Part shown: positions 6,968 to 29,997 of the stretch, in pieces | Position numbering within the stretch: the first letter of the stretch is position 1 | Layout of the letters: each line of letters begins with the position of its first letter | Assembly: GCA_020056645.1 (NCBI GenBank) | Contig: JAGVHJ010000422.1 | Coordinates: 1-37,459 of the forward strand | Origin: Desulfobacterales bacterium | GTDB lineage: Bacteria > Desulfobacterota > Desulfobacteria > Desulfobacterales > JAHIVH01 | Direction of reading: 5' to 3' | DNA: 37,459 bases | Notes under the pieces: model-generated | Databases searched by the model: none | Seen by the model: only the letters and a program-made list of their open reading frames with translations | Told to the model about the DNA's origin: nothing | Position numbers and translations under genes: made by a program

Positions 6968-6979
6968 AAATCTGAAAAA

Positions 6980-7600: not shown

Positions 7601-7606
7601 CGAACA

Positions 7607-7648: not shown

Positions 7649-7668
7649 AACAATCATTGGAGGAAAAA

Positions 7669-9084: not shown

Positions 9085-9100
9085 AGAAGGAGGATGGCAA

Positions 9101-11967: not shown

Positions 11968-11974
11968 ACTGTTT

Positions 11975-11988
11975 CCCCCCCCCCCCCC
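11975..11988 (+). repeat. C14 homopolymeric tract (intergenic)
   Basis: Fourteen consecutive C residues, 8 nt after the stop at 11965-11967 and 87 nt before ATG 12075. Confidence 0.95.
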
Positions 11989-11997
11989 AATTTTTTC

Positions 11998-12025
11998 TTG
12001 ATCATTATTATCATCCATCTATATA
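11998..12025 (+). promoter_or_regulatory. Possible sigma-70-type promoter for the HEAT/FGE gene pair
   Basis: TTGATC - 16 nt - TATATA, immediately downstream of the C14 tract. This is a pattern match only. Confidence 0.25.
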
Positions 12026-12074
12026 CAAGCTTCAATATCCACTTAAAAAAGCACCACGGAAAAGGAGGCAGAGA

Positions 12075-14000
12075 ATGAATCTTCAGGAGGCGAAGAGCGG
12101 TCTTTTCACCAAGACATTTCTTCTTGGTCGGTTCAAACAGAATGCGGCATTAAAATATTTATCTGAAAGCAATGAACCGGGAGCCATTGATATTCTGGTG
12201 GAGGCCCTTGATCAGGGGCACCGGAGTAGGAAGATCAAGGATATCCTGTTGTCCGTTGAGGACCAGGCCAGGCTGGATCATCTCTGGGGCATCTGGTCAA
12301 AAAGCCGATCTGAGAAACTGGAAAACGTGTTGAAAAAGAAAAACGCGCCTGCCAGCGACGAAACCAATCGGGTACTGTCTCTTCTTAAAATCGGCAACAC
12401 GGCTGACATACCCACTGATAATGGTGGGATCCGTAAAGTACTCTCACTCATAAATGATCCTGACAAGAACATAAAAAAAGGTGTGATTGATTATGCCATG
12501 GGGCTGCCCCGGACCGATGAAGCATCGGATCACCTTTACAGGACATGGATAATGCTGAAATCACCCATGTTAGGGGCCGTTGTGCGGGATCAGAAACGAA
12601 CGTTGATTGATCCGTCATTAGAAACCATCGATATTCTATTGATAGCCCTTGAAAAAGGATACGAGAGCGAAGTAGTCAGTAACCTTCTTTTAAGTGTCAA
12701 AGATCCGGCCAAAACCGATCATCTCTGGGCAACCTGGTCAAAAAGCCGGTCTGAGAAACTGGAAAACGTGTTGAAAAAGAAAAACGCGCCTGCCAGCGAC
12801 GAAACCAATCGGGTACTGTCTCTTTTAAAAATCGGACGGACCGATGACGTGCCCCGGGACAGAGGCGGGATGCGAAAAGCCTTCCAACTGCTTGGTGATC
12901 GAGATAAAGAGGTTCAAAAAAGGGTGGTGGATTATGCCAGCCTCCTGCCCAGGACCGAAGACGCCGCAGACGAGATATACGGAGCCTGGCTTAAATTTGA
13001 ATCTGAGCCACTGGCTTCCGTGATCCGGAGTCAGGACCAAAAGCCCTCAAACCCCTCTCTGGAAGCCTTGTTTTTTCTTCTTGAAAACAAGGTAAAGGAG
13101 TATCTGACCCTTGAAAACGAGCGCGGAGAAAGGTTCCAGGAAGCCTTTGCCATGGCGCCCGAATCATTTCGGGAAAAGCTGAATAATGTGGTACTTAAAA
13201 GCGGCAGCAGACGGCTGACCGATGCCTATGAAAAAGCCATGGCGGCAAGAGGTGACTTAAGCAGTGATCTGGTTATCAATGCCAGAAAAACAGCGGGAGA
13301 TGACAACGGCCTTTTTGAAGCAGCCAAATACATGACCCTTACCGGGCTTCTCGATCTTTGCAAACGCTGGACCGACAATAAATGGCGACCCACGGAGCCC
13401 AGATATCGGGCGTTGGTGGAACGGGCCGTTACCGCATATACCCAGGTGGGCGACCTGAATATCGCCACAGACACTCCCGCACCCGAAGGGACCGTCGACC
13501 TGTTCGACGCCTTTCAAAACGACACCCTGAACGACAAACAGATTCTTGAAGGACTGGACGACCCCGACCCCTTTATCCGGATGCGCTCTGTTTACCTTGG
13601 CGTTCTTCGGAATCTTCTGCCTGCGGGACGACTTGAAAAAGCCGCCCAAAGCCAGGACTGGCCCGAACGTCTGGCCGCAAAATTATCACATCAGGTGACG
13701 ACAACAGAAAAAGACCCTGTGACATGGGTCAATGGCTGTACCGGAAGCGGAGGACTGTTAACCGCGCCGGTAAACTGCACGCCGGAGGAATACGATTATT
13801 TCGGACAGATCCTCCACAAAACCCCGTTAACCGCCAGTGGCTTTGCCGCAAAATACCGGGCACTGACGGAAATCCTTCACGCTTTTCAGTCTGTTCATGC
13901 AGCGGGCGGCATCGTTGCCGGGGACGATGACAGCGCCATGGAACCGGAGGCACTCCAGATGACCGAGGTCGAGGATGCTCCGGATGATATCGAATTTTAA
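12075..14000 (+). CDS. HEAT/PBS-lyase-like helical repeat protein with an internal 147-aa tandem duplication and an acidic C-terminal tail
   Basis: ATG 12075 is preceded by AAAGGAGG. Helical-repeat starts: AIDILVEALDQGH, TIDILLIALEKGY, LDDPDPFIRMRSVYLGV. C-terminus ...EVEDAPDDIEF. The ORF-track TTG at 11964 would read through the C14 tract, so it is considered unlikely. Confidence 0.65.
   Translation: MNLQEAKSGLFTKTFLLGRFKQNAALKYLSESNEPGAIDILVEALDQGHRSRKIKDILLSVEDQARLDHLWGIWSKSRSEKLENVLKKKNAPASDETNRVLSLLKIGNTADIPTDNGGIRKVLSLINDPDKNIKKGVIDYAMGLPRTDEASDHLYRTWIMLKSPMLGAVVRDQKRTLIDPSLETIDILLIALEKGYESEVVSNLLLSVKDPAKTDHLWATWSKSRSEKLENVLKKKNAPASDETNRVLSLLKIGRTDDVPRDRGGMRKAFQLLGDRDKEVQKRVVDYASLLPRTEDAADEIYGAWLKFESEPLASVIRSQDQKPSNPSLEALFFLLENKVKEYLTLENERGERFQEAFAMAPESFREKLNNVVLKSGSRRLTDAYEKAMAARGDLSSDLVINARKTAGDDNGLFEAAKYMTLTGLLDLCKRWTDNKWRPTEPRYRALVERAVTAYTQVGDLNIATDTPAPEGTVDLFDAFQNDTLNDKQILEGLDDPDPFIRMRSVYLGVLRNLLPAGRLEKAAQSQDWPERLAAKLSHQVTTTEKDPVTWVNGCTGSGGLLTAPVNCTPEEYDYFGQILHKTPLTASGFAAKYRALTEILHAFQSVHAAGGIVAGDDDSAMEPEALQMTEVEDAPDDIEF
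12183..13064 (+). repeat. In-frame tandem duplication, 2 x 441 nt, inside the HEAT-like gene
   Basis: Unit 1 is 12183-12623 and unit 2 is 12624-13064. The core 12293-12383 versus 12734-12824 differs at a single base, whereas the flanks are clearly diverged. Confidence 0.85.
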
Positions 14001-14036
14001 TGGTTGAGCCAGGAAGGCACCCACAGGAGACACATC

Positions 14037-14822
14037 ATGCCGATCATTCAGATAGAGACTCAGAATACCTGGCGGGCGATGTCGCCCTTGATCATAAACC
14101 AGAAAGACACCTCTCTTCTGGTGTGGATTCCACCCGGCGAGTTTGAGATGGGAGACGGGAAGGAAACTTCTTGCCCCAAGCACCGAGTCCATCTGGACGG
14201 GTATTACATGGGGGTGTACTGCGTAACGAACCGCCAGTATAAGGTTTTTGTGGATAAGACAGGTCATCGTCCACCGGACAATTCAAAGTGGGTGGCTCCG
14301 GAGTACGCAGATCATCCAGTGGTGTGCGTAAACTGGGAAGACGCTACAGCGTACTGTGCATGGGCAGGGTTGCAGTTGCCCACGGAAGCGCAGTGGGAGA
14401 AGTCGGCCCGGGGGCCTTCGGGATTTATTTATCCCTGGGGAAACGAGTGGGACCAAGCCCGGTGCCGGAACGACAAAAACAAGGGCGACCAGACCACCTG
14501 CCGGGTTTATGATTATCCTGAAGGGGTATCGGGGTGCGGGACTTACAACCAGAGCGGGAGTGTATGGGAGTGGTGCCAGGACTGGTATGAGAGTGATTAT
14601 TACAAAAAGAGTCCGCGAGAGAATCCTGCTGGCCCATCAACGGGCTCGGACCGCGTGATTCGCGGCGGCAGCTGGAACATCGACTTTGCCGGCCGCTATC
14701 GGGCCGCCCGCCGGATCAACGACGACCCGCCGTACCGGAGCGACAACGGCGGGTTCCGTGCTTGCCTGCCCCCAGGTCAGCGGCAGTCCGGTCAGGTCAG
14801 GCAGCGAAAGGCGCGGGGGTGA
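14037..14822 (+). CDS. FGE-sulfatase (SUMF1-like) fold protein, copy 1; lacks the catalytic Cys pair
   Basis: ATG 14037 is preceded by AGGAG. Motifs: WIPPGEFEMGDG, HRVHLDGYYMGVYCVTNRQYKVFV, HPVVCVNWEDATAYCAWAG, LPTEAQWEKSARG, GSVWEWCQDWY, RVIRGGSWN, GGFRACLP. There is no cysteine in the GGSWNIDFAGRYR segment, where true FGE carries C-x4-C. Confidence 0.85.
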   Translation: MPIIQIETQNTWRAMSPLIINQKDTSLLVWIPPGEFEMGDGKETSCPKHRVHLDGYYMGVYCVTNRQYKVFVDKTGHRPPDNSKWVAPEYADHPVVCVNWEDATAYCAWAGLQLPTEAQWEKSARGPSGFIYPWGNEWDQARCRNDKNKGDQTTCRVYDYPEGVSGCGTYNQSGSVWEWCQDWYESDYYKKSPRENPAGPSTGSDRVIRGGSWNIDFAGRYRAARRINDDPPYRSDNGGFRACLPPGQRQSGQVRQRKARG

Positions 14823-14885
14823 CCCGGTCAGGGGAGGCGGGAGCCGGACCTGACCGTGGGCACACCGGTGCCTTTCGCGGGGCCA
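14088..14885 (+). repeat. Dispersed direct repeat, copy A (FGE-fold gene body plus about 60 nt of 3' flank)
   Basis: Long runs are identical to 19659-20483, for example 65 nt ttgatcataaaccagaaagacacctctcttctggtgtggattccacccggcgagtttgagatggg. The similarity continues past the stop codon through ccggacctgaccgtgggcacaccg-tgcctttcgcggggcca. Confidence 0.85.
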
Positions 14886-14891
14886 GCGTAG

Positions 14892-14937
14892 GGGCAGGTT
14901 CCAAACCTGCCCGTTGAGGGCGGGTTTGGAACCTGCC
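14892..14937 (+). repeat. Pair of GC-rich palindromes (REP-like or terminator-like)
   Basis: GGGCAGGTTccaAACCTGCCC (14892-14912) and GGGCGGGTTTGGAACCTGCC (14918-14937). The second is nearly the reverse complement of the first. No U-tract follows. Confidence 0.5.
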
Positions 14938-15029
14938 ACTCCAAGAGGGCCTGACATAAGTCAACAGCATCGGACCTGACCGCAGGCATAAAAGAAACCA
15001 ACAGATAAAAAAACAAGTGGAGGTAACCC

Positions 15030-15590
15030 ATGACCACAAAACAGAACGGATTTTTTTCCAGGCTGTGTCAGGCAGCCGCAGCCCTTGGAGGCTCTCCGGA
15101 ACCGGAAAGCGCGGCGGGCACAACCCCCCCCGATGAGCCCTCTCGCCTCAAATCCCATATCCGAACCCTTGAGTTGGACATCGAAGAACGGGAGACCCGG
15201 ATCAAGACCATGCAGAAGGAGTTCGACCATTTCAGCCGTCAGGCAGAACGTGACAGGGAGGGCGCAGGGTCCGCAGAAATTCAGGCCCTTGCCAAGAGAC
15301 TTGCGCCGATCCTTTCCCAGGTTCCCACCATGCGGGCCATGCACGCCGAGGGCGCGCCCGTCCGGCAGGAAGATCTGCTCCGGCTGTTTGAAAAAGTGGA
15401 ACGGATTTTACAGGAAACAGGCCTTACGCCCATCGGCCAGGTGGGAGAGAGCGTCCGTTTTGACAGCCGTCTGCACCAGCGGATGAGCGGCGGAGACCTA
15501 AGCGACGGAGGGACCGTGCAGGTCCGGTTTGTGGGATACCACATAAACGATGTGATTCTGACCAAAGCCTTGGTCAGCAGAGAGGATTAA
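15030..15590 (+). CDS. GrpE-like nucleotide-exchange factor (186 aa)
   Basis: N-terminal coiled coil (IRTLELDIEERETRIKTMQKEF). C-terminal GrpE-type beta domain: GLTPIGQVGESVRFDSRLHQRM ... VQVRFVGYHINDVILTKALVS. RBS GGAGG. Confidence 0.7.
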   Translation: MTTKQNGFFSRLCQAAAALGGSPEPESAAGTTPPDEPSRLKSHIRTLELDIEERETRIKTMQKEFDHFSRQAERDREGAGSAEIQALAKRLAPILSQVPTMRAMHAEGAPVRQEDLLRLFEKVERILQETGLTPIGQVGESVRFDSRLHQRMSGGDLSDGGTVQVRFVGYHINDVILTKALVSRED

Positions 15591-15593
15591 CCC

Positions 15594-17210
15594 ATGGCCA
15601 TTGCCCTTGATTTCGGGACATGCAACACCGTCATCGCCCGTTGGAATGATACCCTTGAAACCGTCGAGTATATCCGGCTGGACTCCCTGACCCGGACCTT
15701 TACCTACCGGATTCCCGGAACCGGGACGGATAAAAAAGCCTATGTGGTCCCCTCCCTCATCCACTACGGTGAGGAGGACAGCTACCGGATCGGCGAACAG
15801 GTTCACGCCGCCGGACTGACCGCTGAAAAGGGCTCGTTTCGATGGGTCAAACTGGACATGCTCCAGGGCAACAGGAAAAGTCGGCGGATCAACGGAAAGA
15901 TGATCAGCTACACCGATGCCGCAACCGATCTTCTCAAGCAGATCCTCATGTTTACCGCAGGAAGCAGGGGCGCTGCCGAAGAAGACCTGATCATCACCGT
16001 TCCGGTTGAAGCCTACGACCATTACACAGAATGGATCAGGGACGTTGCAAGCAGCATCTTCACAAGGGACGTTCGGATACTGGATGAAGCCACCGCCTGT
16101 ATCCTGGGATATGCCGAGCGGGTCAAGGACGAAGAGATTTTCGCTGTCGTCGACTTTGGCGGCGGTACCCTGGACGTCTCCATCGTCAAAACCAATCTGA
16201 CCGCTGAAGGTCGTAACAAATGCCGTGTTCTCGGTCGCGCCGGAGAGGAAATCGGCGGCGTGCTGGTGGACAAGTGGATGATGGAGGACCTCAAAAACAA
16301 AGAGGGCATGGACGACCAGGACATCGCCGACATCGGCACCGCCCTCCTTCAGGATATTGAAAACGCCAAAATCGACCTGTCATCGGGGCAAAAGAGCGTG
16401 GACATCACCCGGTACAACGACATCAGCGGCAGACTCATCAGCCACACCTTCACCCAGTATGATCTGGCCCGGATACTTGCCGCAAACGCTGTCCAAAAAA
16501 CCGTTGCCCGAACCATCGAACGGGCCCTTGAGGCTGCCCAGGATAAATACGGAACCAAAAAATCCCAGATCAAGGGTGTGATGATGGCCGGAGGATCGAG
16601 CCTTCTTCTGGGCGTGACCGATACCGTCAAAACCTCTTTTCCGAGCAGTGACGTTTACTGCGACAGCCCCTTTGAAGCCATTGCCGGTGGGGCATGCCGG
16701 TTCATGGGCGAAGACCTGATTCCCACCCTGGTGCATGACTACTGTCTCAGGATATGGAACCGTGAACAGAAAGAATATGAACTGAAACCCGTGGTTTCAA
16801 AGGGAACCCAGTACCCCACCGAAAAGCCGGTTTCCGTAAAATACCTGAACGCCGCCTGCCATGGTGCAGACTGTCTGGGTATTGTCATCCACGAACGGTC
16901 TTACATGGTCAGGCCCGACAGCACCGTGACCGTGGATGCTTCCGGGAGGATACAGATACAAAAGATCGGAGAGACAGCCCATGAAAATGTCCGGCCCCTG
17001 AATCCCGAGGACCGGCAGTTTGTTTACGCCATCCCGCCGTGCGAACTGGACGACACCAAACGGTTTATCGCCGGATTCGGGGTGGACACGCACAAACGCC
17101 TGACCATTTCCATCAAGGACACCCGGGCGGAAAGCAAATCATACATCAAAACCCGGGCCGGAGAAAAATTTCCGTTACCCGTCAAAGATTTCCCAATAGT
17201 GAGGTTATAA
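15594..17210 (+). CDS. Hsp70-family ATPase (538 aa) with an SBD-beta-like region but apparently no helical lid
   Basis: Phosphate-1 IALDFGTCNTVIA, phosphate-2 AVVDFGGGTLDVSIV, adenosine motif VMMAGGSSLLLGV. The C-terminal LVHDYCLRIWN...VVSKGTQYPTEKPV resembles the DnaK SBD-beta start. It begins 3 nt after the GrpE-like stop. Confidence 0.9.
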   Translation: MAIALDFGTCNTVIARWNDTLETVEYIRLDSLTRTFTYRIPGTGTDKKAYVVPSLIHYGEEDSYRIGEQVHAAGLTAEKGSFRWVKLDMLQGNRKSRRINGKMISYTDAATDLLKQILMFTAGSRGAAEEDLIITVPVEAYDHYTEWIRDVASSIFTRDVRILDEATACILGYAERVKDEEIFAVVDFGGGTLDVSIVKTNLTAEGRNKCRVLGRAGEEIGGVLVDKWMMEDLKNKEGMDDQDIADIGTALLQDIENAKIDLSSGQKSVDITRYNDISGRLISHTFTQYDLARILAANAVQKTVARTIERALEAAQDKYGTKKSQIKGVMMAGGSSLLLGVTDTVKTSFPSSDVYCDSPFEAIAGGACRFMGEDLIPTLVHDYCLRIWNREQKEYELKPVVSKGTQYPTEKPVSVKYLNAACHGADCLGIVIHERSYMVRPDSTVTVDASGRIQIQKIGETAHENVRPLNPEDRQFVYAIPPCELDDTKRFIAGFGVDTHKRLTISIKDTRAESKSYIKTRAGEKFPLPVKDFPIVRL

Positions 17211-17212
17211 AC

Positions 17213-19546
17213 ATGGACTATGCAAGAGCCTTAAACCCGGAAGAAACTCTGGGCGTGTTTAAAATTGAAAAATTCCTGGGCCGGGGCAATTTCAAAAGCG
17301 TTTATCTGGCCCGGACCCAGGGAGAAGGAAAGTCGCGTTATCCCGATCACGTCGCCCTTTCTGTGCCCCACATCCAGGACAAGGAGAACTGGCGGCTCCT
17401 TGAAAACGAATACCGGATGATCAAGGGCCTGGATCATCCCGGCATCGTGAAAGCATACGGTCTTGAATCCGACAAGACTTGTTTTTTCATCGTCATGGAA
17501 GTCGTCGAAGGAGAAACTCTGGACCATCTTCTGGCCAGGAAGGGGGCTGCTCTTCCCCTGGATGAGGCGATATCAATCATTCGCAAGGCTGGGCTTGCTA
17601 TCGATTACGCCCATGAATGCCTGGCCATCCACCGGGACCTGAAACCCGAGAATATCATTGTTTGCCCGGACGGCGCGGTCAAACTTCTGGACTTCGGTCT
17701 CGCGCGGCTCATGGCCCATTCCAAATACAAGGCCGCAACCCGTGTGGGAACCATGGCTTATATGCCCCCTGAACAGTTCGAGGGCGCAGCGGGTCTGAAC
17801 GCCGATATTTGGTCCCTGGGCATGACCTTTTACCATCTGATCACCCGAACCCTCCCATTTACGTCCGACAATGAAGGCGCCTTGCTCTATCAGATCCTCA
17901 ATGCCCCCCCGAACATGGAGCCCATCGACCATCTCGGCCATGACCCCAGGCTTTCAGGCGTCATCAGTAAAGCCCTTTCCAAAGATCCGGAAAAACGGTA
18001 CATGAAAGCCGCCGCGTTTATCGAAGACCTGCAAGCCGTGGCCAGGCACGCAGCCGCCATCACCACCGCCGAAGGAGAAATCGAGGCCGTTCTTCGGGCA
18101 CATTTCCCCCTGATCTACATCCAGACCTTTGAAGAAGACCGCACCCTGGAATCCCTGGAACGGATCAGGCGTCTGATGTCCGGTGCCCGTGAGGTGGGGC
18201 TTTATATCTGGAGTGAAACCCGTGGATTAAGAGACTCGGAAGGACACGCCCTTGCTGCAGAAACCGCCGGCGACCCCCTTGTGGCTTTAAAACACGTTAT
18301 CCGTTCCGATGCCGAGGGGATTTACGTGTTTCTGGACATCCACCGCCATCTCACCCCTGTGGCCGTAAGGCTCGTGCGGGACGCCATCTGGTCCGTGAAA
18401 CGGCACCGGAAAAGCCTGGTGTTTCTCTCACCCGTCGTGACCATCCCCAAAGAGCTGGAATCGGACACCACCCTCATGTTCTATCACCTGCCCGACATGG
18501 AACAGCTGAAAGAACTCGCGATATTCCTTTCCCGTGAACAGAAAACACCCGATGGAACCGATCCGGGAGTCGTTTCCGAAGCCGTGGCCAGGGCGCTTCT
18601 CGGGCTCACCCGTGTTGAAGCCGAACGGGTGCTCAACCGAAGCATGATCAGAACCGGTGGGTTCAGCCAAGACTGCGTTCTTGAAGTTCTGGGAGAAAAA
18701 CAGCAGATCGTCCGCAAGGCGGGGCTTCTTGAATTTTACCCCCCAACCGTCGGATTTGACGACGTGGGCGGCCTGAACGGACTTAAAGAGTGGTTCGGCA
18801 AAAGACGCCAGGCCTTTACCGGATCAGGAAAGCTTTACGGTCTTCCCGCCCCCAAAGGCGTTGTGCTGGCAGGAGCCCCCGGATGCGGTAAGAGCCTCTC
18901 CGCCAAGGCCCTGGCCACGGAATGGGGCGTTCCCCTGCTCCGGCTTGACATGGGGCGGATCTACTCTTCTCTTCTGGGATCATCCGAAGCCAACCTCCGA
19001 AAAGCCCTCCACACCGCAGAAGCCGTGAGCCCTTGTATTCTCTGGATTGATGAATTGGAAAAAGCGTTCGGCAGCAGCGGGGCCGGACTTGACGGCGGCG
19101 TGGCCAAACGGGTGTTCGGCGCCTTTTTAAACTGGCTGGAAGAACGGACATCCCCCGTGTTCGTGGCCGCCACCGCCAACAGCATCACCCGGCTTCCTCC
19201 GGAATTCACCCGGAAAGGCCGGTTCGATGATGTGTTTTTCGTGGGACTTCCAGGCAAAGAGGAACGAAGGGCCATATTTTCTGTTCACCTTCGAAGGAAA
19301 GGACGCCAGGAGAAAGATTTTGATCTGGCCCTTCTTTCTGAAAAAAGCGATGGGTTTTCTGGAGCGGAGATCGAAGAATCCGTGATCTCCGCCCTGTATC
19401 AGGCCTTTGAAGAGGGGGAGCGGCCCCTTGGAACCGATGATATGCTGAACACCCTGGCCGCGACCGTTCCCATGTCCCGGTCGAGAAGCTGGGAAATGGA
19501 GGCGCTTCACCAGTGGGCAGCGGTGAACGCCCGGTCGGCGAAATAA
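17213..19546 (+). CDS. Hanks-type Ser/Thr protein kinase fused to a Ycf46-like AAA+ ATPase (777 aa)
   Basis: ATG 17213 lies 3 nt after the Hsp70 stop. Kinase: GRGNFKSVY, HRDLKPENI, DFGLARL, GTMAYMPPEQ, DIWSLGMTFYHL. Ycf46-like N-domain: FPLIYIQTFEEDRTLESLERI. AAA: [78 protein letters not shown]. Confidence 0.9.
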   Translation: MDYARALNPEETLGVFKIEKFLGRGNFKSVYLARTQGEGKSRYPDHVALSVPHIQDKENWRLLENEYRMIKGLDHPGIVKAYGLESDKTCFFIVMEVVEGETLDHLLARKGAALPLDEAISIIRKAGLAIDYAHECLAIHRDLKPENIIVCPDGAVKLLDFGLARLMAHSKYKAATRVGTMAYMPPEQFEGAAGLNADIWSLGMTFYHLITRTLPFTSDNEGALLYQILNAPPNMEPIDHLGHDPRLSGVISKALSKDPEKRYMKAAAFIEDLQAVARHAAAITTAEGEIEAVLRAHFPLIYIQTFEEDRTLESLERIRRLMSGAREVGLYIWSETRGLRDSEGHALAAETAGDPLVALKHVIRSDAEGIYVFLDIHRHLTPVAVRLVRDAIWSVKRHRKSLVFLSPVVTIPKELESDTTLMFYHLPDMEQLKELAIFLSREQKTPDGTDPGVVSEAVARALLGLTRVEAERVLNRSMIRTGGFSQDCVLEVLGEKQQIVRKAGLLEFYPPTVGFDDVGGLNGLKEWFGKRRQAFTGSGKLYGLPAPKGVVLAGAPGCGKSLSAKALATEWGVPLLRLDMGRIYSSLLGSSEANLRKALHTAEAVSPCILWIDELEKAFGSSGAGLDGGVAKRVFGAFLNWLEERTSPVFVAATANSITRLPPEFTRKGRFDDVFFVGLPGKEERRAIFSVHLRRKGRQEKDFDLALLSEKSDGFSGAEIEESVISALYQAFEEGERPLGTDDMLNTLAATVPMSRSRSWEMEALHQWAAVNARSAK

Positions 19547-19577
19547 GAGACCTATGTTGAATCAAGGAATCTGAATA

Positions 19578-20441
19578 ATGAATGGAAACGCAATTCCCAA
19601 AGGGCTTGAGTGGGTGAAATATTACAAACCGGAGATTCAACAGGTAGTACAGCACCCGTTGATCATAAACCAGAAAGACACCTCTCTTCTGGTGTGGATT
19701 CCACCCGGCGAGTTTGAGATGGGGGATGGGAAGGATAATGATTGTCCCAGACACCGGGTTCATCTGGATGGGTATTACATTGGCGTTTACTGCGTGACGA
19801 ACCGTCAGTACAAGGTCTTTGTGGATGAGACGGGACATCGTCCGCCGGACAAGACAGATTATGGAACCCCGATCTGGAAAGGCAAAAGTTACCCAACAGA
19901 GTACGCGGATCATCCAGTGGTGTGTGTAAGCTGGGAAGACGCCACAGCGTACTGTGCATGGGCAGGGTTGCAGTTACCCACGGAAGCGCAGTGGGAGAAT
20001 TCGGCCCGGGGGCCGTCTGGATTTATTTATCCCTGGGGAAGCGCGTGGGATGAAACCCGGTGCCGGAGCCACAAAAATAAGGCCACCCAGACCACCTGCC
20101 GGGTTTATGATTATCCTGAAGGGATATCGGGGTACGGTACCTACAACCAGAGCGGGAATGTATGGGAGTGGTGCCAGGACTGGTATGGTCCTGATCATTA
20201 TAACACCAGTCCGCGAGAAAATCCTGCTGGCCCATCAACGGGCTCGTACCGCGTGTGTCGCGGCGGCAGCTGGAACTGCGTCATTGCCGACGGCTTTCGG
20301 GCCGCCGACCGGTACAACCGCGACCCGGCGATCCGGTACGACTACTTCGGGTTCCGTGCTTGCCTGCCCCCAGGTCAGCGTCAGTCCGGTCAGGTCAGGC
20401 AGCAAAAGGCGCGGGTGTGGCCCTGGCAGGGGAGGCGGTAG
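19578..20441 (+). CDS. FGE-sulfatase (SUMF1-like) fold protein, copy 2; lacks the catalytic Cys pair
   Basis: Same motif set as copy 1 and long identical nucleotide runs. It has a 9-aa insertion (DKTDYGTPIWKGKSYP). GGSWNCVIADGFR carries one Cys but no C-x4-C. Confidence 0.85.
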   Translation: MNGNAIPKGLEWVKYYKPEIQQVVQHPLIINQKDTSLLVWIPPGEFEMGDGKDNDCPRHRVHLDGYYIGVYCVTNRQYKVFVDETGHRPPDKTDYGTPIWKGKSYPTEYADHPVVCVSWEDATAYCAWAGLQLPTEAQWENSARGPSGFIYPWGSAWDETRCRSHKNKATQTTCRVYDYPEGISGYGTYNQSGNVWEWCQDWYGPDHYNTSPRENPAGPSTGSYRVCRGGSWNCVIADGFRAADRYNRDPAIRYDYFGFRACLPPGQRQSGQVRQQKARVWPWQGRR

Positions 20442-20483
20442 CCGGACCTGACCGTGGGCACACCGATGCCTTTCGCGGGGCCA
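19659..20483 (+). repeat. Dispersed direct repeat, copy B (FGE-fold gene body plus 3' flank)
   Basis: Counterpart of 14088-14885, offset by 5571 nt at the left edge. It contains a 27-nt insertion relative to copy A. Confidence 0.85.
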
Positions 20484-20512
20484 AAAAAAATAAATAACAA
20501 GGAGAATCAACC

Positions 20513-20908
20513 ATGTCACACTTTACAACCATCAAAACCGTGATCAGAAATCAGGTGGTGCTGGAAGACACCTTGCGGTCTCTCCACTATAATTTCCAGT
20601 CCGGAGAATCGGTGCCCATAAGGGGGTATCAGGGGAACAGAACCACCGGCCAGGTGGTGATAAACACCGGGTCTGATTATGACATCGGCTTTCAGCGGCA
20701 GACGGATCAGACATTTGCCGTCTGCGCCGACTGGTGGGGTGTCCAAAAAAGCACCGCCATCCGCGAGGACGAATTCTTACGGGAAGTGAACCAGTCCTAT
20801 ACCCACCAGAACGTAAAACGGGAAGTGTTGGCGCTAGGGCATCTCATCGAATCCGAGAAAGTCCTTGAAAACGGTGAGATCGAAATCGTGGTCTGTGAAA
20901 GAATCTGA
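20513..20908 (+). CDS. DUF1257 (Ycf35-like) family protein (tentative)
   Basis: The N-terminus MSHFTTIKTVIRNQVVLEDTLRSL matches the characteristic MSHF-x-x-IKT start I associate with DUF1257/Ycf35 proteins. RBS AAGGAG. Confidence 0.55.
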   Translation: MSHFTTIKTVIRNQVVLEDTLRSLHYNFQSGESVPIRGYQGNRTTGQVVINTGSDYDIGFQRQTDQTFAVCADWWGVQKSTAIREDEFLREVNQSYTHQNVKREVLALGHLIESEKVLENGEIEIVVCERI

Positions 20909-20925
20909 CAAAAAGGAGTGAGGTC

Positions 20926-21132
20926 ATGAAAAAAATGCGAATCAGAATCGGTAAGGACGGAAAAGCGACCATCGCTGTTGAAGGGGCGGTGGGAACCACC
21001 TGTCTTGAATTTACAAAACAGGTGGAAGAGGCCCTGGGGAATGTGGATAAACGGGTTTACAGCGAAGCGTATCACCAGGACGAGCTGGTGGACACCCTGT
21101 CAGCCAATCTGACTCAGGAGGAATCGCTGTGA
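20926..21132 (+). CDS. DUF2997-like small protein (68 aa, tentative)
   Basis: IRIGKDGKATIAVEGAVGTTCLEFTKQVEEALGNV fits the DUF2997 pattern (DG-x-hydrophobic...G-x-x-G-x-x-C...ALG). The position between DUF1257 and an AAA gene is typical. RBS AAGGAG. Confidence 0.5.
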   Translation: MKKMRIRIGKDGKATIAVEGAVGTTCLEFTKQVEEALGNVDKRVYSEAYHQDELVDTLSANLTQEESL

Positions 21133-22748
21133 GCAAACCAGAAACAGGCGCCATCGGCGACGGGTTCGGCAGGGATCTGGCCGTGTATATCCGGGCGGGA
21201 TATCCGATCATCAATATTATTTCCAGCGAAGAGGACCGGGCTCTGGAGGTCATCGAGGAGATCCGAAAAGACCATACCCTCTGGAAACAGCCCCGTACCC
21301 TGTTTATCTGGACCATCTCCCGTGGGTTCGTGGACATCAACGGAGAGCCGGCCACCAAGGATAAAACCATTCTTCCCGAACAGGCCCTCATGTTCATGGC
21401 CAAGTACGACCAGGCGGCTATTTTCCTGTTCAAGGATTTTCATCCCTATCTCAAAGACGGCCAGCACAAGAACGCCTCCCTCATTGTCCGCATGGTCCGG
21501 GACTTGGTGGGAAGCCAGAAAAACCAGAGTAAAACCATGATCTGGGTCTCCCCCATGCTCCAGATTCCGCAGGAACTGGAAAAGGAGGTGACGGTGCTCG
21601 ATCTTCCGCTGCCCGGAGAAAACGAATACCGACGGATCCTCACGGGGTATATCGACCAGTACAAGGACAACCCCCGGGTCATGATCGATCTGGACGAAGA
21701 GGGCATCGACGGCATGGTCAAGGCCTGCCAGGGCCTCACCCTCTGTGAAGCGGAAAACGCCCTTGCCAAGGCCATCGTCAGCCGGGGGCGGCTGGACAGT
21801 CAGGACATCAAGACCATTTTAGCAGAAAAGGAACAAATCATCCGCAAATCGGGGATTCTGGAATATACCGCCACCGTTGATAATTTCGGCACTGTGGGGG
21901 GCCTGGGGAACCTCAAACTCTGGTTGAAACAGCGAAACCGGGCGTTTTCTCAAAAGGCCCGTGACTTTGGCCTTCCCCATCCCAGAGGTGTCATGCTGGT
22001 GGGCGTCCCCGGCTGCGGTAAAAGCCTCTGCGCCAAGGCTGTGGCCGCCGAATGGCAGAAACCTCTTTTAAAATTCGATCTGGGCCGTGTCTTTGGAAGC
22101 CTTGTGGGCGAGTCGGAAGAGCGGATGAGAAAGGCCCTGAAAACTGCGGAAGAGGTGGCCCCCGCCATTCTCTGGATCGACGAGCTTGAAAAAGGCCTTT
22201 CCGGAGCAGGCGGAAGCGTCGGCGACGGCGGCGTGGGCGCCAGGGTTTTCGGCAACCTTCTCACCTGGATGGAAGAAAAAACAAAACCGGTCTTTGTGGT
22301 GGCCACCGCCAACGACATCACAAGCCTGCCCCCTGAACTTCTCCGGAAAGGCAGGATGGACGAAATTTTTTTCGTTGATCTGCCCACTCCCCAGGAACGG
22401 GCGGAGATCCTGATGATCCATCTGTTCCGGCGCAGACGTGATCACGCCCAGTTTGACATCGCCCGTGTGGTTCACGCCACAGAGGGGTTTAATGGAGCCG
22501 AACTGGAGGAAATAGTTATCAGCGCCATGTATGAAGCCTTCTCCGAAACAGGAAAAGAGATGACAACCGACCATCTTTCCAAAGCCGCAAGTGAGATTGT
22601 TCCGCTGTCGCAATCACGACACCATGACATTGAAGCCCTTCGCCAATGGGCTAAGGCCAACTGCCGCCCCGCAGCGGAACAACCTGGCAAGACCGGAGAA
22701 AAGAGCGATTCGTTGACCGAACGGCGGACCCGTCTCCTGGATCTTTAA
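21129..22748 (+). CDS. Ycf46-like AAA+ ATPase, paralog 2 (539 aa)
   Basis: GTG start overlaps the upstream stop (GTGA). N-domain [21 protein letters not shown]. Walker [40 protein letters not shown]. Walker [40 protein letters not shown]. Confidence 0.9.
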
Positions 22749-22759
22749 GGAATAAAACC

Positions 22760-23398
22760 ATGACTGAAGTTCAAATCAGGATTCATCAGCAGACAGAACC
22801 GGAACCGATGGTGTCCGTTGCTGCGGTTCTTACCCGATCACGGGTGAACGGACCCTTTACCCGTGCGGTCCTCTGGGTGCAGGGCTGCCCCCGAAGGTGT
22901 TCCGGATGCTGCAATCCGTTGTTCCAGGAATTTACGGACCACGACCTGCGCACGCCTTTGGATGTGGCTGACATGCTTCTTACGGATCCGGCCATCGAGG
23001 GGATCACTTTTTCAGGTGGGGAACCCTTTTCCCAAGCTTCGGGCCTTGCCATTGTTGCGGAACAGGCCCAAAATACCGGGAAAGGGATGGTGATTTTTAC
23101 GGGCTTCACCTATGCCGAACTTCTTGCCAGCGAAGACCAAGGGATAAAATCGCTGCTTGGCCATACGGACATGCTTGTCGCCGGACCCTACCTGCGAGAT
23201 ATGCCATCCCCCCACCCGCTTCTTGCCAGCGCCAACCAGGAGATCGTTCATCTTACGGATCGCTACCGGAATTGGACGCCCAAGGCTGGAAAACGGGCGG
23301 AGTTTAAAATTAGCGGTGATGGCGCTGTTTTGACGACGGGCCTTGCGGTTTTGGAATTGTCAGGAAACCTGTCATCAGTCAACCTGTTTATAAAATGA
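22760..23398 (+). CDS. Small radical-SAM activating-enzyme-like protein (NrdG/PflA-type, 4Fe-4S single-cluster)
   Basis: SRVNGPFTRAVLWVQGCPRRCSGCCNP contains the C-x3-C-x2-C motif. GITFSGGEPF is a SAM-binding GGE motif. The short length (212 aa) is typical of glycyl-radical-enzyme activases. Confidence 0.75.
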   Translation: MTEVQIRIHQQTEPEPMVSVAAVLTRSRVNGPFTRAVLWVQGCPRRCSGCCNPLFQEFTDHDLRTPLDVADMLLTDPAIEGITFSGGEPFSQASGLAIVAEQAQNTGKGMVIFTGFTYAELLASEDQGIKSLLGHTDMLVAGPYLRDMPSPHPLLASANQEIVHLTDRYRNWTPKAGKRAEFKISGDGAVLTTGLAVLELSGNLSSVNLFIK

Positions 23399-23409
23399 AA
23401 GGAGAAACC

Positions 23410-24978
23410 ATGAATTTTACGGGAGAACTCGATCTGCTGTTAAAAGCAAGGATACCGGTGATCAACATCGTGGGTGGCGACGAATCAAGGATCATCCGGG
23501 GGATCGAATCCCTTGCGGCTTCCTCAAAATGGCCTGCGGGTGAGGGCCTTTATTCCTGGGATATCGCCGATCAGTTTGTCTGTCTTCGGAATGGGCATAC
23601 CCGCTTTGATGTTTCGACCAAGGCGACGCCAGACACCATTCTGGAAATGATCGATGGATTTCAGGGCGGAGCAACCTTCATCCTGAAAGACTTCCACCAT
23701 GTCTGGGAAGCCAAGAAAAGCGTTATCCGGAAACTCAGAAACCTGTCCCAGAAACTGGTGAGTTCCCAGATCCGGAAGAACATCGTGATCACCACCCCCG
23801 AATACAAGCTCCCCATTGAACTGAAAAATGATGTGGTCTATCTGGAGTGTCCCAAGCCGGATGCCACAGAGATTGCCGCACTGATCCGCAGGGTTTTCGG
23901 TGAAGATATGCTGCGCGGGGTGACCCAGGAGCTAAAGGATAAAATTATCGAGTCGGCGCTGGGTCTGTCAAGTTCCCAGGTCGAACGGGTTTTCAGGGTG
24001 GCCGCTGTTTCCGGGGGAAACGGACGACTGGATGAATCGTGCATCGATCTGGTCATCACTGAAAAATGCCGGATTATCCGGGAAAGCGGCGCTCTGGAAT
24101 TTATCACCTCCACGGAGAAACAGGAAAGTGTGGGTGGGCTGGAGGTTCTGAAACGATGGCTTGGCCAGCGGGCCGAATCATTTACGGAAGAAGCCCGGAT
24201 TTATGGTTTGGACCATCCCCGAGGGCTTGCGCTCATAGGTATCCCCGGAACCGGAAAAAGTCTTTGCGCCCGGCTGATCGCCGGAATGTGGAAACTTCCC
24301 CTTTTGAGGCTCGATATGGGAGCGGTGTTCGGCGGGCTTGTGGGGCTTTCTGAAAAAAACATCCGGGAGGCCATCCAGATTTCCGAGGTGATTTCGCCCT
24401 GTATCCTCTGGATTGACGAGATCGAAAAGGCGTTCGCCGGATCAGGCGGAGACAGCGGCACGGCTGCGCGGGTTCTGGCCACGTTTCTGACCTGGATGTC
24501 TGAAAAGCAGCATCCGGTCTTTGTGTTCGCAACGGCCAACAATATCGAACGGCTGCCACCGGAATTCTTGAGAAAAGGACGATTTGACGAGGTCTTTTTT
24601 CTCGATCTCCCCTCCCATGAAGAACGCCGAAAGATCCTTGAAGTGCATCTCAACAAGAAAAATTTCACGATGGTGTCTCAGAAATTTGATTTGAACCGGA
24701 TCGCCACGGCCACGGAAGGGTTTGTGGGGGCTGAACTGGAATCCATCGTCAAGGATGCCATGTTTCCGGCCTTTATGGACAATGAAAGAGAATTGGAAAC
24801 AGAAGACCTGTTCAAAAGTGCCAACGACATGGTGCCTCTTGCAAAATCCCATTCGAGAGTCGTAGAAGAACTGCGTGTACTGGTAACAAGCGGGCTGGCG
24901 CGGAACGCATCAAAAGTCGCTGAAGAAAAAGTGGTAAGACTGGATACAATCCCCGGTGTCAGACGTCTGGAGATTTAG
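23410..24978 (+). CDS. Ycf46-like AAA+ ATPase, paralog 3 (522 aa)
   Basis: ATG 23410 is preceded by AAAGGAG; an alternative ATG at 23395 overlaps the upstream stop. N-domain IPVINIVGGDESRIIRGIESL. Walker A LIGIPGTGKSLCARLIAGMW. PLLRLDMGAVFGGLVGLSE. Walker B ILWIDEIEKAF. ATANNIERLPPEFLRKGRFDEVFFLDLP. Confidence 0.9.
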   Translation: MNFTGELDLLLKARIPVINIVGGDESRIIRGIESLAASSKWPAGEGLYSWDIADQFVCLRNGHTRFDVSTKATPDTILEMIDGFQGGATFILKDFHHVWEAKKSVIRKLRNLSQKLVSSQIRKNIVITTPEYKLPIELKNDVVYLECPKPDATEIAALIRRVFGEDMLRGVTQELKDKIIESALGLSSSQVERVFRVAAVSGGNGRLDESCIDLVITEKCRIIRESGALEFITSTEKQESVGGLEVLKRWLGQRAESFTEEARIYGLDHPRGLALIGIPGTGKSLCARLIAGMWKLPLLRLDMGAVFGGLVGLSEKNIREAIQISEVISPCILWIDEIEKAFAGSGGDSGTAARVLATFLTWMSEKQHPVFVFATANNIERLPPEFLRKGRFDEVFFLDLPSHEERRKILEVHLNKKNFTMVSQKFDLNRIATATEGFVGAELESIVKDAMFPAFMDNERELETEDLFKSANDMVPLAKSHSRVVEELRVLVTSGLARNASKVAEEKVVRLDTIPGVRRLEI

Positions 24979-25334: not shown

Positions 25335-26663
25335 ATGGATCATTTGAACTACGTCAAACAACTCATCGAAGACGCAAATACGCCTGTTCCCTTTCCGGAA
25401 CCCATGAGTGAAATGAAGGAACCATCCTTTTTTAAGTCCGTTCTCAGGCTGCTGAAACACGAATTTGAAACAATTTATGGTATCGAGAAAAACCTCGATC
25501 CACAAAAAGAGGATCTAAAGCCAGCTGAACTGAAACGGTTCAGCCTGCGTCGCTTCACGCCGGACGTTAAAAAAATCCATGCCGCCCTCGAAGCGGATGG
25601 CGGCCAGGCCACCGGGGCCGGTTTTAACAGTTTCACCTTTTCTGTCCTTCTGGAACAAATGATCGTGATGGATCTTCATTTTTTTTCTGTGGATGCGCCT
25701 GAAGTGCGTCATTTTGAAAGACGCCAATGGGAGATCCTGATGATGATTGAAAAAGCGGAAGAAGCGATGAAAACCGATTACTGGGAGTCCAAATCCACCT
25801 GGCTCCATCTGATGCGGGAATCCGGGAAACTGGGGGTGGACCTGGCGGAAGGAATTCTCAATACCGTCTATGACAATGAAATCTATATCGAGGAATTCGG
25901 GATGCTGCTCACCCAGTTGAATATCGCGTTCATGAAAAAAACAGAACTTTCCATCTACTACGACCTGAAGACCAGCCATCCTGAACTCAGCCGCGAGGAT
26001 CTCCAAATCATGGCCGCGAAAACGGAAAACCTGAAACAGAACGATCAAAGAGTTCAGGAAAACATCTCCCGGGAAATCGATCCAAAGATCATTGAGCATA
26101 AGGATCGTCCCAATACCAGCCGGAACAGCAAGGAGCGGGACAAGATCATTTTAACCCTGGCCAATGTGATCCATGACGACCACCTGGTACATCATCCCAG
26201 CTACAACTCTCTGAATGACGGCGCGAAACAATACCTCTCGGATTTTCTCGCGGCCCTTCTTTCCGCTAAAAAGCCCTCTCCCTTTTCCAGCCCCGTGATG
26301 TTCGACGGGTTCAACCTCTCATCCCTGGAAGGACTGGTTTCAGCAGCGGACCATGTGGCAATGATTTTGACGGATGCTGGGATTTCGGACCTCAAACTCA
26401 GCGCCCTAGAGCGGGGAAAGAGCGTGGAGGCGATCCTTGATTTTCTGCACCGCGACATCCTGAGGCTCCAGCAGTCCAACCTGGCCCTTCGGGGAAATAT
26501 CGTCGGCCATCTGCACCATTCCGCCATGCTGAAAAAGGCGATTTTAAATAAAGCGGTGGAGGAGGAGCGGCTGAAAACAGAAATCCGAAGGGTAAATGAT
26601 TCCATCAGCCTGCTTCAAAGCATGCTCGACGACCTTTTTTTAGAGGAGGTCCCCCATGAATGA
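25335..26663 (+). CDS. Coiled-coil-rich protein, family member 3 of 3
   Basis: Aligns with the other two copies: ILTLANVIHDDHLVHHPSYNSLNDGAKQYLSDFL, LDFLHRDILRLQQ. It is shorter at the N-terminus. Confidence 0.7.
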   Translation: MDHLNYVKQLIEDANTPVPFPEPMSEMKEPSFFKSVLRLLKHEFETIYGIEKNLDPQKEDLKPAELKRFSLRRFTPDVKKIHAALEADGGQATGAGFNSFTFSVLLEQMIVMDLHFFSVDAPEVRHFERRQWEILMMIEKAEEAMKTDYWESKSTWLHLMRESGKLGVDLAEGILNTVYDNEIYIEEFGMLLTQLNIAFMKKTELSIYYDLKTSHPELSREDLQIMAAKTENLKQNDQRVQENISREIDPKIIEHKDRPNTSRNSKERDKIILTLANVIHDDHLVHHPSYNSLNDGAKQYLSDFLAALLSAKKPSPFSSPVMFDGFNLSSLEGLVSAADHVAMILTDAGISDLKLSALERGKSVEAILDFLHRDILRLQQSNLALRGNIVGHLHHSAMLKKAILNKAVEEERLKTEIRRVNDSISLLQSMLDDLFLEEVPHE

Positions 26664-29363: not shown

Positions 29364-29777
29364 TCAACTCAATGAATTGAAAGGGTTGCATATGCGCAGA
29401 CGATCTTCGATAACCATTCCGTCCTGCATATCTTCGGAGTACAAAATGCCGCACCCTCCATTCAGGGCAGCCGCAACAATCATGGCATCATAAACGCTCA
29501 ATCCGTAGCGTTCAGCAACCCACCTTCCCCGATCATGTGTGTCTGATGTCAAAGGGTCAACACGACACATAGACCTAATAATTGTCAAGACTTCATCGAT
29601 TTCTATCCATGACATGTCTAATTTACGTCGAGCAACGCTTAGAACCTCATTTAATACCTGCACACTAATCAGTCCCCCGGCACGCAGAATTGCCTCGGCT
29701 TGATCCGCTTTTTCTTTGTCCGCAGACAAGGTATAAAGCAAAATGTTGGTGTCTATGAAGACTTCAGAATCTATCAT
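29364..29777 (-). CDS. vapC: PIN-domain toxin (VapC-like)
   Basis: MIDSEVFIDTNILLY (first acidic residue), SVQVLNEV, DAMIVAAAL, ILYSEDMQDG. The start could instead be ATG 29786. It overlaps the antitoxin stop. Confidence 0.8.
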   Translation of the reverse strand: MIDSEVFIDTNILLYTLSADKEKADQAEAILRAGGLISVQVLNEVLSVARRKLDMSWIEIDEVLTIIRSMCRVDPLTSDTHDRGRWVAERYGLSVYDAMIVAAALNGGCGILYSEDMQDGMVIEDRLRICNPFNSLS

Positions 29778-29997
29778 TGGCGTCATCCCGGTCGAGCTTG
29801 AAATCGGAGGGTAATTTCCCACGAAACCGCCTTAACCGCTTCAACAACTCTTCTCTTTCAGGCTTCTTTTTTACATGAAAGGTTCTCTCGCCAGCAACCA
29901 CAATCTCAATATTATCGCCTTCTCGTAATTCAAGCGCTTTAATTACGGAAGCAGGCAACCTTATTGCCAAGCTGTTACCCCATTTTGAAACTTGCAT
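29764..29997 (-). CDS. vapB: AbrB/SpoVT-type antitoxin (VapB/MazE-like)
   Basis: MQVSKWGNSLAIRLPASVIKALELREGD is the canonical SpoVT/AbrB swapped-hairpin start. ATG 29997 is preferred over 30009 on RBS grounds (GGTGGA). Confidence 0.8.
   Translation of the reverse strand: MQVSKWGNSLAIRLPASVIKALELREGDNIEIVVAGERTFHVKKKPEREELLKRLRRFRGKLPSDFKLDRDDANDRF

Follow-up and report, generated by a model that had tools for sequence, protein, structure and literature searches.

We show that a 37,459-nt contig of a Desulfobacterales bacterium (JAGVHJ010000422.1; the whole stretch is called the window below) holds an eleven-gene cluster in which two proteins of the formylglycine-generating enzyme (FGE) fold, a C-type-lectin fold, appear to be variable proteins of a diversity-generating retroelement (DGR). 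They stand beside a constant machinery made up of Ycf46-type AAA+ ATPases, a protein kinase, a lidless Hsp70 and a radical S-adenosylmethionine (SAM) enzyme. On balance, we think that this gene set probably serves ligand surveillance in the cytoplasm, as a conflict system whose receptors are diversified by a DGR. Nothing in bacteria comes closer to antigen receptors than lectin-fold sensors diversified in this way, and the only architectures linked to such sensors so far are STAND, MoxR-vWA and fused effectors; here they are tied to entirely different machinery. Receptors of this kind wired to Ycf46-type AAA+ ATPases, a private lidless Hsp70 and a radical-SAM enzyme would come as a surprise to specialists.

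The open reading frames (ORFs) of the window were profiled against Pfam, PADLOC-DB v2.0.0 and NCBIfam. A preliminary description of this DNA had placed nine plus-strand genes between positions 15030 and 24978 and taken them to be probably one operon. All nine ORFs lie where it put them, but the boundary of the unit does not hold: two further same-strand genes, coding for a HEAT-like protein and a second FGE-fold protein, lie directly upstream of the GrpE gene, and the real unit comprises eleven genes from about 12075 to 24978. Its features, including the two variable regions (VRs), are as follows.

12075..14000 (ORF opens at 11964), plus strand: HEAT-like alpha-solenoid protein (weak HEAT_2 match)
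14004..14822, plus strand: FGE-fold variable protein A, FGE-A (PF03781, E = 9e-52)
14649..14749, plus strand: DGR-type VR of FGE-A, from the codon-position pattern against FGE-B, with a nearly invariant 3' tail after it
15030..15590, plus strand: GrpE-like nucleotide-exchange factor (PF01025, 42.4 bits against a cut-off of 25.8)
15594..17210, plus strand: lidless Hsp70 (Pfam HSP70 nucleotide-binding domain, AlphaFold2 model, Foldseek)
17213..19546, plus strand: Ser/Thr kinase fused to a Ycf46-type AAA (kinase::AAA; Pkinase, AAA and AAA_lid_3)
19578..20441, plus strand: FGE-fold variable protein B, FGE-B (PF03781, E = 8e-53), paralog of 14004-14822
20247..20347, plus strand: DGR-type VR of FGE-B, from the comparison with FGE-A
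20513..20908, plus strand: DUF1257 (Ycf35-type) protein (PF06868)
20926..21132, plus strand: DUF2997 small protein with one invariant Cys (PF11211; family alignment)
21129..22748, plus strand: AAA1, Ycf46-type AAA+ ATPase (Pfam AAA; intact ATPase motifs)
22760..23398, plus strand: small radical-SAM enzyme of the NrdG/PflA activase type (Fer4_12, E = 7e-24)
23395..24978, plus strand: AAA2, Ycf46-type AAA+ ATPase (Pfam AAA), which travels with the Hsp70/GrpE/radical-SAM module

Each domain assigned earlier to the nine genes is borne out by Pfam (GrpE, the HSP70 nucleotide-binding domain, Pkinase with AAA and AAA_lid_3, FGE-sulfatase, DUF1257, DUF2997, AAA, Fer4_12/Radical_SAM and AAA). Among the junctions, the 3-nt gap at 15590/15594 and the 4-nt overlap at the gene start at 21129 are as claimed, while the supposed 3-nt gap at 17210/17213 is recorded as adjacent; the gene starting at 23395 also overlaps its predecessor by 4 nt. 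The cluster is indeed richer in G+C (0.52-0.60) than its surroundings (0.38-0.47). No transmembrane segment was found in any of the 11 proteins, and the eleven-gene system is thus predicted to be wholly cytoplasmic. None of the 11 reached an NCBIfam equivalog cut-off.

Neighbourhoods in other genomes were gathered around homologs of the kinase::AAA fusion and combined with three genome loci, Hsp70-anchored loci and one metagenome locus, and all were scanned in the same way by phmmer, the window proteins serving as queries; a DUF1257-anchored metagenome scan gave at least seven loci. The same eight to eleven families lie together, in shuffled order, in about 12 independent loci: the window itself, L001 with L090, L003, L004, L006, L008, L009, L087, L088, L089, L091, L098 and one JGI contig. 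L001 and L090 both belong to Candidatus Ferrigenium straubiae and were counted as one two-operon case. The order is RT-HEAT-GrpE-Hsp70-FGE-AAA2-DUF1257-DUF2997-AAA1-FGE-kinase::AAA-FGE-radical SAM in L089, where RT is a reverse transcriptase, and GrpE-Hsp70-FGE-AAA2-DUF1257-DUF2997-AAA1-FGE-kinase::AAA-radical SAM in L004, and L003, L006, L008, L009, L087, L088 and L098 show other permutations of the gene set. Orthologs are 30-69% identical to the window proteins. This co-conservation far exceeds chance.

A chance juxtaposition of unrelated units could be read into Ca. Ferrigenium straubiae, where the set is split over two operons (HEAT-GrpE-Hsp70-radical SAM-AAA2-ferredoxin and kinase::AAA-DUF1257-FGE-DUF2997-AAA1), and into the independent existence of AAA-DUF1257 and radical SAM-AAA pairs elsewhere. 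However, the two Ferrigenium operons lie only about 10 kb apart, and the recurrence of the families in several phyla and in varied orders contradicts chance, so that we regard this explanation as almost certainly wrong.

Whole loci were found in Proteobacteria, Myxococcota, Acidobacteriota and unassigned metagenome contigs, with Gallionellaceae, Polyangiaceae and Acidobacteriia among the hosts, as well as Lamprocystis and Chlorobium phaeobacteroides according to protein names. Homologs of single proteins extend to Accumulibacter, Pirellulaceae, Planctomycetaceae, Lentisphaeria, Oligosphaeraceae and Verrucomicrobiota, and the system is essentially absent from the viral contigs of IMG/VR. The cluster is most likely horizontally mobile as one system. 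Some homologous clusters carry inserts that the window does not have, namely DUF559/MTES_1575 endonuclease-like genes within two of them and a DUF433 and DUF5615 (PIN-like) pair in one (L003, 12387-12803; L006, 7903-8580 and 13142-13747).

The FGE-fold proteins of the system are, as far as their sequences tell, DGR variable proteins. The one FGE-fold protein noted earlier had been called non-catalytic; the lack of the catalytic cysteines stands, and both the second gene and the DGR-type variability had been missed. Catalytic FGE carries a conserved copper/active-site Cys pair in the C-terminal motif GGS(F/Y)xCHxSYCxRYR. The window proteins read RGGSWNIDFAGRYRAARR and RGGSWNCVIADGFRAADR there, with the Cys pair replaced by variable codons, and they score far below the cut-offs of the NCBIfam enzyme models, so that neither qualifies as a catalytic FGE.

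Two homologous loci carry what read as textbook pairs of template repeat (TR) and VR. At L009, a 124-nt non-coding, AAC-rich TR can be aligned to four FGE genes at their 3' ends, and 87 of the 88 mismatches fall at TR adenines; at L088, a TR just downstream of the RT gene aligns with the ends of two FGE genes (39 of 42 mismatches at TR adenines). Four loci have an RT within the cluster or next to it, as HRDC together with RVT_1 in L006 and L088 and as RT in L009 and L089. The L006 enzyme bears the motif IGNLTSQ, which we take to be an instance of the [LIV]GxxxSQ signature of DGR RTs. NCBIfam holds no DGR-specific RT model, and the scores that it gives these RTs are group-II-intron-like and under the cut-off. 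The third repeat of L006, at 12945-13008, was considered as a TR and ruled out by alignment.

The two window genes bear the same imprint. Outside the variable block, FGE-A and FGE-B are about 90% identical at the nucleotide level. Inside it, all 24 differences over 120 nt fall at codon positions 1 (13 differences) and 2 (11 differences) and leave position 3 untouched, the pattern expected of templating from TR adenines, whereas 16 of the 34 differences in the 348 nt upstream fall at position 3. A nearly invariant tail follows both VRs on their 3' side, and they differ from each other (21 per 90 nt) just as much as the confirmed VRs of L009 do. The encoded motif, RGGSWN..A..RAA.R.N..P..R.D..GFR, is that of a classic C-type-lectin VR, and the proteins have the architecture of DGR targets, PF03781 spanning residues 38-260 and the variable block lying 25-40 residues from the C-terminus. 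Neither FGE-A nor FGE-B has a signal peptide or a transmembrane segment. A TR scan of both window strands, with mismatches tolerated up to 35%, matched only the two VRs, and no RT or HRDC homolog lies within the 37 kb; the DGR would therefore reside elsewhere in the genome, or has been lost. A hairpin sought downstream of the VRs was no better than in shuffled sequence. The FGE genes are greatly expanded in one JGI contig, where 16 FGE genes or gene fragments are annotated in the surroundings of the machinery.

The presence of an RT in or beside four of the clusters also raises the question of whether the machinery serves the retroelement itself, in cDNA synthesis, retrohoming or some other task directed at nucleic acids. 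Such a role would fit the helix-hairpin-helix DNA-binding protein that precedes the radical SAM-Ycf46-type AAA pair in anaerobes, and the HTH_17 gene found before the kinase in four loci. We nevertheless judge it very improbable, since an RT and the TR RNA together with one accessory protein (Avd or HRDC) suffice for characterised DGRs (PMC5758913), and most loci, the window included, have the machinery without an RT.

Turning to the constant part, the private Hsp70/GrpE pair described earlier, with a lidless Hsp70 and no J-protein in the cluster, was confirmed by Pfam, structure prediction and Foldseek. The AlphaFold2 model of Hsp70 (pLDDT 87) comprises a nucleotide-binding domain at residues 1-375 and an all-beta C-terminus at 380-538, with no alpha-helical lid, and so departs from the beta-sandwich plus helical lid of DnaK. 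Its nucleotide-binding motifs (DFGTCNT, DFGGGTLD and AGGSS) are those of an actin-fold domain, which matches that of DnaK at E = 3e-14, and the top Foldseek matches, over about 550 aligned columns, are DnaK structures, including deletion mutants of the alpha-helical substrate-binding subdomain. Family members are about 540 aa at full length and 47-81% identical. GrpE is paired with Hsp70 in L004, L006, L008, L089 and L090. Neither a DnaJ Pfam match nor an HPD motif was found in the 11 proteins, and a J domain could be encoded elsewhere.

The HEAT-like protein is a candidate adaptor or co-chaperone of this Hsp70 module. It is 678 aa long, with a likely start at the ATG at 12075 according to homolog alignment, and contains an internal duplication (12261-12548 / 12702-12989). 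Six other loci have homologs, which precede GrpE/Hsp70 in L003, L008, L089, L090 and L091 and open the cluster in L088. The HEAT-like protein has no match in PDB or PADLOC. HEAT-like proteins end in a conserved acidic tail, EVEDAPD..F (window 13960-14000), which is reminiscent of chaperone-docking tails.

A private Hsp70/GrpE pair and three unfoldase-type ATPases beside a randomised binding face could also point to dedicated folding or quality control of hypervariable proteins, in which the chaperones and AAA+ ATPases buffer or cull misfolded DGR variants while the lectins act alone. FGE genes indeed adjoin Hsp70/AAA2 in L004, L089 and L091. Yet C-type-lectin VR scaffolds in other DGRs tolerate diversification without chaperones (PMC5758913), AAA-DUF1257 and radical SAM-AAA pairs occur outside the system without a detected FGE or RT in the loci examined, and the kinase, the radical-SAM enzyme and DUF1257/DUF2997 would be left unexplained. 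We therefore consider quality control rather improbable as the purpose of the set.

As noted before, the kinase-fused AAA and the two free ones are three Ycf46-type paralogs; they are 38-44% identical end to end. All three retain intact Walker A (GxPGCGKS), Walker B (ILWIDE), sensor 1 and Arg fingers, and all have an N-domain of about 250 aa, which in the fusion lies between kinase and AAA. The best PDB match of the AAA module is the D2 domain of p97/Cdc48. Residues 289-776 of the fusion correspond to the whole length of cyanobacterial Ycf46, with 39-44% identity, and this full-length homology, together with adjacency to DUF1257, places the ATPases in the Ycf46 family. AAA followed by DUF1257 (ycf46-ycf35) is found in nearly every cyanobacterial locus, AAA-DUF1257-DUF2997 in metagenome-assembled genomes of Thermodesulfobacteriota and Myxococcales, and AAA1 follows DUF1257/DUF2997 in most loci that have all three. 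Gene context thus resolves AAA-DUF1257 and radical SAM-AAA as ancient sub-modules, and because these are seen in gene contexts elsewhere, both partnerships can be recognised in the window, DUF1257-DUF2997-AAA1 and radical SAM-AAA2, each with a 4-nt overlap.

The triad also occurs in phages. In Rhizobium phage RHph_I4 (L100, MN988552: 60899-64221), AAA, DUF1257 and DUF2997 stand in a row; a Ycf46-type AAA is present in 57 phage records, in 56 of them over at least 80% of its length (Mycobacterium phages of the Corndogvirus type, Pseudomonas, Rhizobium and Rhodobacter phages and a Streptococcus satellite), and PHROGs families exist for all three proteins. DUF1257 is 62-80% identical across phyla at an unvarying 131 aa, and the N-terminal MSHF, RGY, YDxG and DxWG motifs are common to it and cyanobacterial Ycf35. 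Its AlphaFold2 model (pLDDT 85) found no match in PDB by Foldseek (best E = 0.44), and its only significant match in BFVD was an unnamed viral protein (E = 4e-8, TM-score 0.69). A DUF2997 profile gave nothing significant against PDB sequences. In cyanobacteria, DUF2997-ycf35 is reported to adjoin the ferredoxin gene fed7 (PMC4284462). In Ferrigenium (L090, 14209-14532), a 2Fe-2S thioredoxin-like ferredoxin follows radical SAM-AAA2. With such ferredoxin neighbours, the module may be linked to redox reactions or to an electron donor.

The kinase::AAA product read from 17213 is 777 aa long and equals database protein P0001; about 90 full-length homologs are 45-71% identical to it. HRD and DFG are intact. 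In all 15 family members the Lys of strand beta-3 (VAIK) is absent and replaced in the form VAxC/S/A/G/W (window region 17213-18100), and all 15 share an invariant Lys in the Gly-rich loop (GRGxFKxVY). A catalytic Lys in the Gly loop is the arrangement that defines eukaryotic WNK kinases, and the motifs align one by one with what we take to be the sequence of WNK1. The top PDB matches are PknB-type kinases, so only the arrangement is WNK-like and no membership in the WNK family is claimed. A small HTH_17 gene lies just upstream of the kinase in L003, L006, L087 and L088, and the window has none.

The radical-SAM enzyme carries CPRRCSGC (CX3CX2C) and the SAM motif GGEP, and its best model is NrdG, at 74 bits against a cut-off of 126. 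The cluster contains no glycyl-radical substrate motif (RVxG[FYW]) and no glycyl-radical enzyme. With the motifs present, the score below cut-off and no cognate enzyme, it does not fit an activase of a glycyl-radical enzyme. No match was found among PDB sequences. Adjacency of radical SAM and AAA recurs in anaerobes, and the pair alone also occurs in Firmicutes, which reveals a conserved partnership of uncharacterised chemistry. A separate conserved operon, for which no description was found in the literature, joins a helix-hairpin-helix (HHH_3, ComEA-like) protein, an NrdG-like radical-SAM enzyme, a Ycf46-type AAA and an uncharacterised protein in Melainabacteria, a rumen bacterium, Methanomethylophilaceae and Microbacterium (L045, L063, L066, L082, ~8400-12900).

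Taken together, the system divides into a variable and a constant part. The variable part is most likely the FGE-fold lectins, a diversified set of ligand receptors whose C-terminal surface is rewritten by the DGR. The constant part consists of four modules: DUF1257-DUF2997-AAA1, kinase::AAA, HEAT-GrpE-Hsp70-AAA2, and the NrdG-like radical-SAM enzyme, which is translationally coupled to AAA2. We propose that a lectin-fold receptor would bind an intracellular, probably foreign, macromolecule and might act as substrate adaptor for the p97-like AAA rings by way of the Ycf46 N-domains and DUF1257/DUF2997. The lidless Hsp70/GrpE pair, with the HEAT-like protein, could help to hand over the substrate, as DnaK does for ClpB, and engagement might switch on the ring-tethered kinase. 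The radical-SAM enzyme would possibly then act on the unfolded substrate, and the outcome might be a neutralised target or growth arrest. The foreign nature of the ligands, the adaptor role of the lectins and the parts given to kinase, Hsp70 and radical-SAM enzyme are inferred. The resemblance to NTPase-centred conflict systems pointed out in the preliminary description is supported.

Several observations weigh against a surveillance role in conflict. No classical toxic effector (nuclease, TIR, pore-former or protease) is conserved in the set, which makes it atypical for abortive-infection defence. The defence-island context is anecdotal and comes from four loci only, with an integrase and PIN/MazE beside L003, relaxase, single-stranded DNA-binding protein (SSB), SNF2 and DUF932 genes beside L004, SspB/SspC of the Ssp defence system beside L006, and HipAB beside L091. 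Pore loop 1 reads L-L/V-G across the AAA paralogs (L-V-G in AAA1), and the usual aromatic residue is absent. Since the AAA-DUF1257-DUF2997 triad is housekeeping-like in cyanobacteria and is found in phages, the machinery is not intrinsically defensive. Finally, current diversification of the two window FGE genes is unproven because the window holds no RT or TR, and no VR variation within populations was seen between the assemblies of L001 and L002 or of L004 and L005; the sequences within each pair are identical, and the pairs are hence uninformative on this point.

Part of this evidence could also describe a non-immune regulatory sensor, in which lectins sense endogenous or environmental ligands and the kinase::AAA and chaperones tune physiology ("DGR-based regulatory pathway tuning"). 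As its output domain the set has a signalling kinase, and it lacks a conserved toxic effector; Ycf46/Ycf35 is a core gene pair of cyanobacteria and plastids; the Ferrigenium operons flank GGDEF, RelA/SpoT and hemerythrin genes; and a DGR survey allows some cellular targets in "microbial cell regulation". On the other hand, the set is patchy across phyla yet highly conserved, it lies in islands with integrases, relaxases, toxin-antitoxin pairs and Ssp, and the massive expansion of FGE paralogs in some loci suits an arms race better. We consider such a regulatory role unlikely, and keep to ligand surveillance as the reading that we prefer.

A bolder version of the surveillance reading would see here an unrecognised prokaryotic immunity of an adaptive-like kind, in which DGR-diversified lectins serve as programmable adaptors that aim a p97-like AAA+/lidless-Hsp70 unfolding machine, a ring-tethered WNK-like kinase and a radical-SAM enzyme at any intracellular (viral) protein, and in which ycf46, ycf35 and DUF2997 would find their first functional context. 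This is a possibility that we offer tentatively and that may well prove wrong. In either version, Ycf46, Ycf35/DUF1257 and DUF2997, orphan families that range from cyanobacteria to plastids and phages, would gain a testable molecular role, and the gene set is compact, soluble, conserved and transferable to a model host.

How far the system has been described before was examined in catalogues and in the literature, the latter in full text for DUF1257/DUF2997, for Ycf46/Ycf35, and for DGR combined with Hsp70, GrpE, AAA, kinase or radical SAM. PADLOC gave only generic kinase and AAA matches, the kinase to PD-T4-6 and mad6 (E ~1e-64) and the AAA to IetA (E 1e-21 to 1e-27). Nothing in PADLOC-DB matched the FGE, DUF1257, DUF2997, radical-SAM or HEAT-like proteins, and GrpE and Hsp70 matched at chance level only. 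The earlier suggestion that this combination had not been described thus agrees with PADLOC and with the literature searched, in which no description was found. Only the generic catalytic domains are common to the cluster and to PD-T4-6, mad6 of MADS, PglW of BREX and IetA of Iet, and the partner genes of such systems (IetS protease, methyltransferases, PglX/Z) are absent here; NCBIfam scores, too, stay far below the equivalog cut-offs.

The nearest relatives in concept are the systems in which FGE-sulfatase (FGS)/C-type-lectin domains are DGR-diversified intracellular sensors of invaders coupled to NTPases and kinases (PMC7159879, PMC8195603, PMC10907252). Those of Kaur et al. 2020/2021 and Dore et al. 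2024 (the VMAP/iSTAND MoxR-vWA ternary systems, STAND-FGS and the Thiohalocapsa DGR targets) resemble the present one in the DGR-diversified FGE-sulfatase-fold domain, and also in being intracellular and NTPase-associated, with S/T kinases in some cases, multiple paralogs and predicted sensing of invaders. In contrast, the lectin here is stand-alone (about 270 aa) and is fused to STAND or vWA there, and no MoxR, vWA, STAND, EAD/Death-like adaptor, caspase, TIR or trypsin domain occurs among the 11 genes. Conversely, the classic-clade Ycf46-type AAA, DUF1257, DUF2997, the lidless Hsp70/GrpE pair and the NrdG-like radical-SAM enzyme found here go unmentioned in PMC7159879, PMC8195603 and PMC10907252. 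The theme of sensor and diversifier is established; the AAA/Hsp70/kinase/radical-SAM machinery is undescribed.

The machinery itself has partial counterparts. One is the Ycf46/Ycf35/DUF2997 set of cyanobacteria and red-lineage plastids: the full length of Ycf46 aligns at 39-44% identity with AAA1, with AAA2 and with the last 490 aa of the fusion, and the adjacency of AAA and DUF1257 is shared. In the cyanobacterial pairs examined, no kinase fusion, system-type Hsp70/GrpE, radical-SAM, RT or FGE homolog was detected alongside, and the Ycf46/Ycf35 literature consists of gene lists only. DnaK-GrpE-ClpB and p97/Cdc48 with its adaptors offer a likeness in that an Hsp70 and its exchange factor are encoded beside an AAA+ unfoldase, in the similarity to p97 D2 and in an N-domain available for adaptor binding; the present system differs in its lidless Hsp70, in the lack of a J-protein in the cluster, and in an AAA that has one ATPase ring only and no aromatic residue in its pore loop. 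The radical-SAM enzyme is like NrdG/PflA in its small size, CX3CX2C and GGE SAM motif, whereas its constant partner here is an AAA+ ATPase.

The genes around the cluster were also inspected. The preliminary description had the cluster bracketed by sigma-54-controlled modules and a Clp/FtsH fusion protease; these are present, and sites do lie upstream of the modules, but they do not belong to the system. The modules, here called X-WD40-Y, together with their small genes and the Clp/FtsH fusion, were considered as satellites and rejected, as no specific homologs occur in any other system locus. With no counterparts beside the system elsewhere, they are best taken as local context in a lower-GC genome. 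The main flanking features are listed below.

270-3803, plus strand: fusion of Clp-type AAA_2, classic AAA and M41 (FtsH) peptidase, 1177 aa
3883-5544, downstream of the Clp/FtsH fusion: GAF/sigma-54 activator
6316-11967 (plus strand), 25335-29351 (plus strand) and 36839-30252 (minus strand): X-WD40-Y triplets, three paralogous copies
29364-29822, minus strand: stand-alone PIN-domain gene between modules 2 and 3

Pfam gave no match for X or Y, and no antitoxin was identified for the PIN-domain gene. Sigma-54-like -24/-12 sites lie at 6177, 25224 and 36874, upstream of the modules; the total of such sites does not exceed chance expectation, and the central cluster has none upstream of it. The Clp/FtsH fusion has generic PADLOC matches to IetA, DolB and PDC-M37B. 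The central region is framed by an inverted duplication whose closely related copies are modules 1 and 3, each taken with the two small genes upstream of it; their proteins match at 226-620 bits and their DNA over an arm of 655 nt at 80%.

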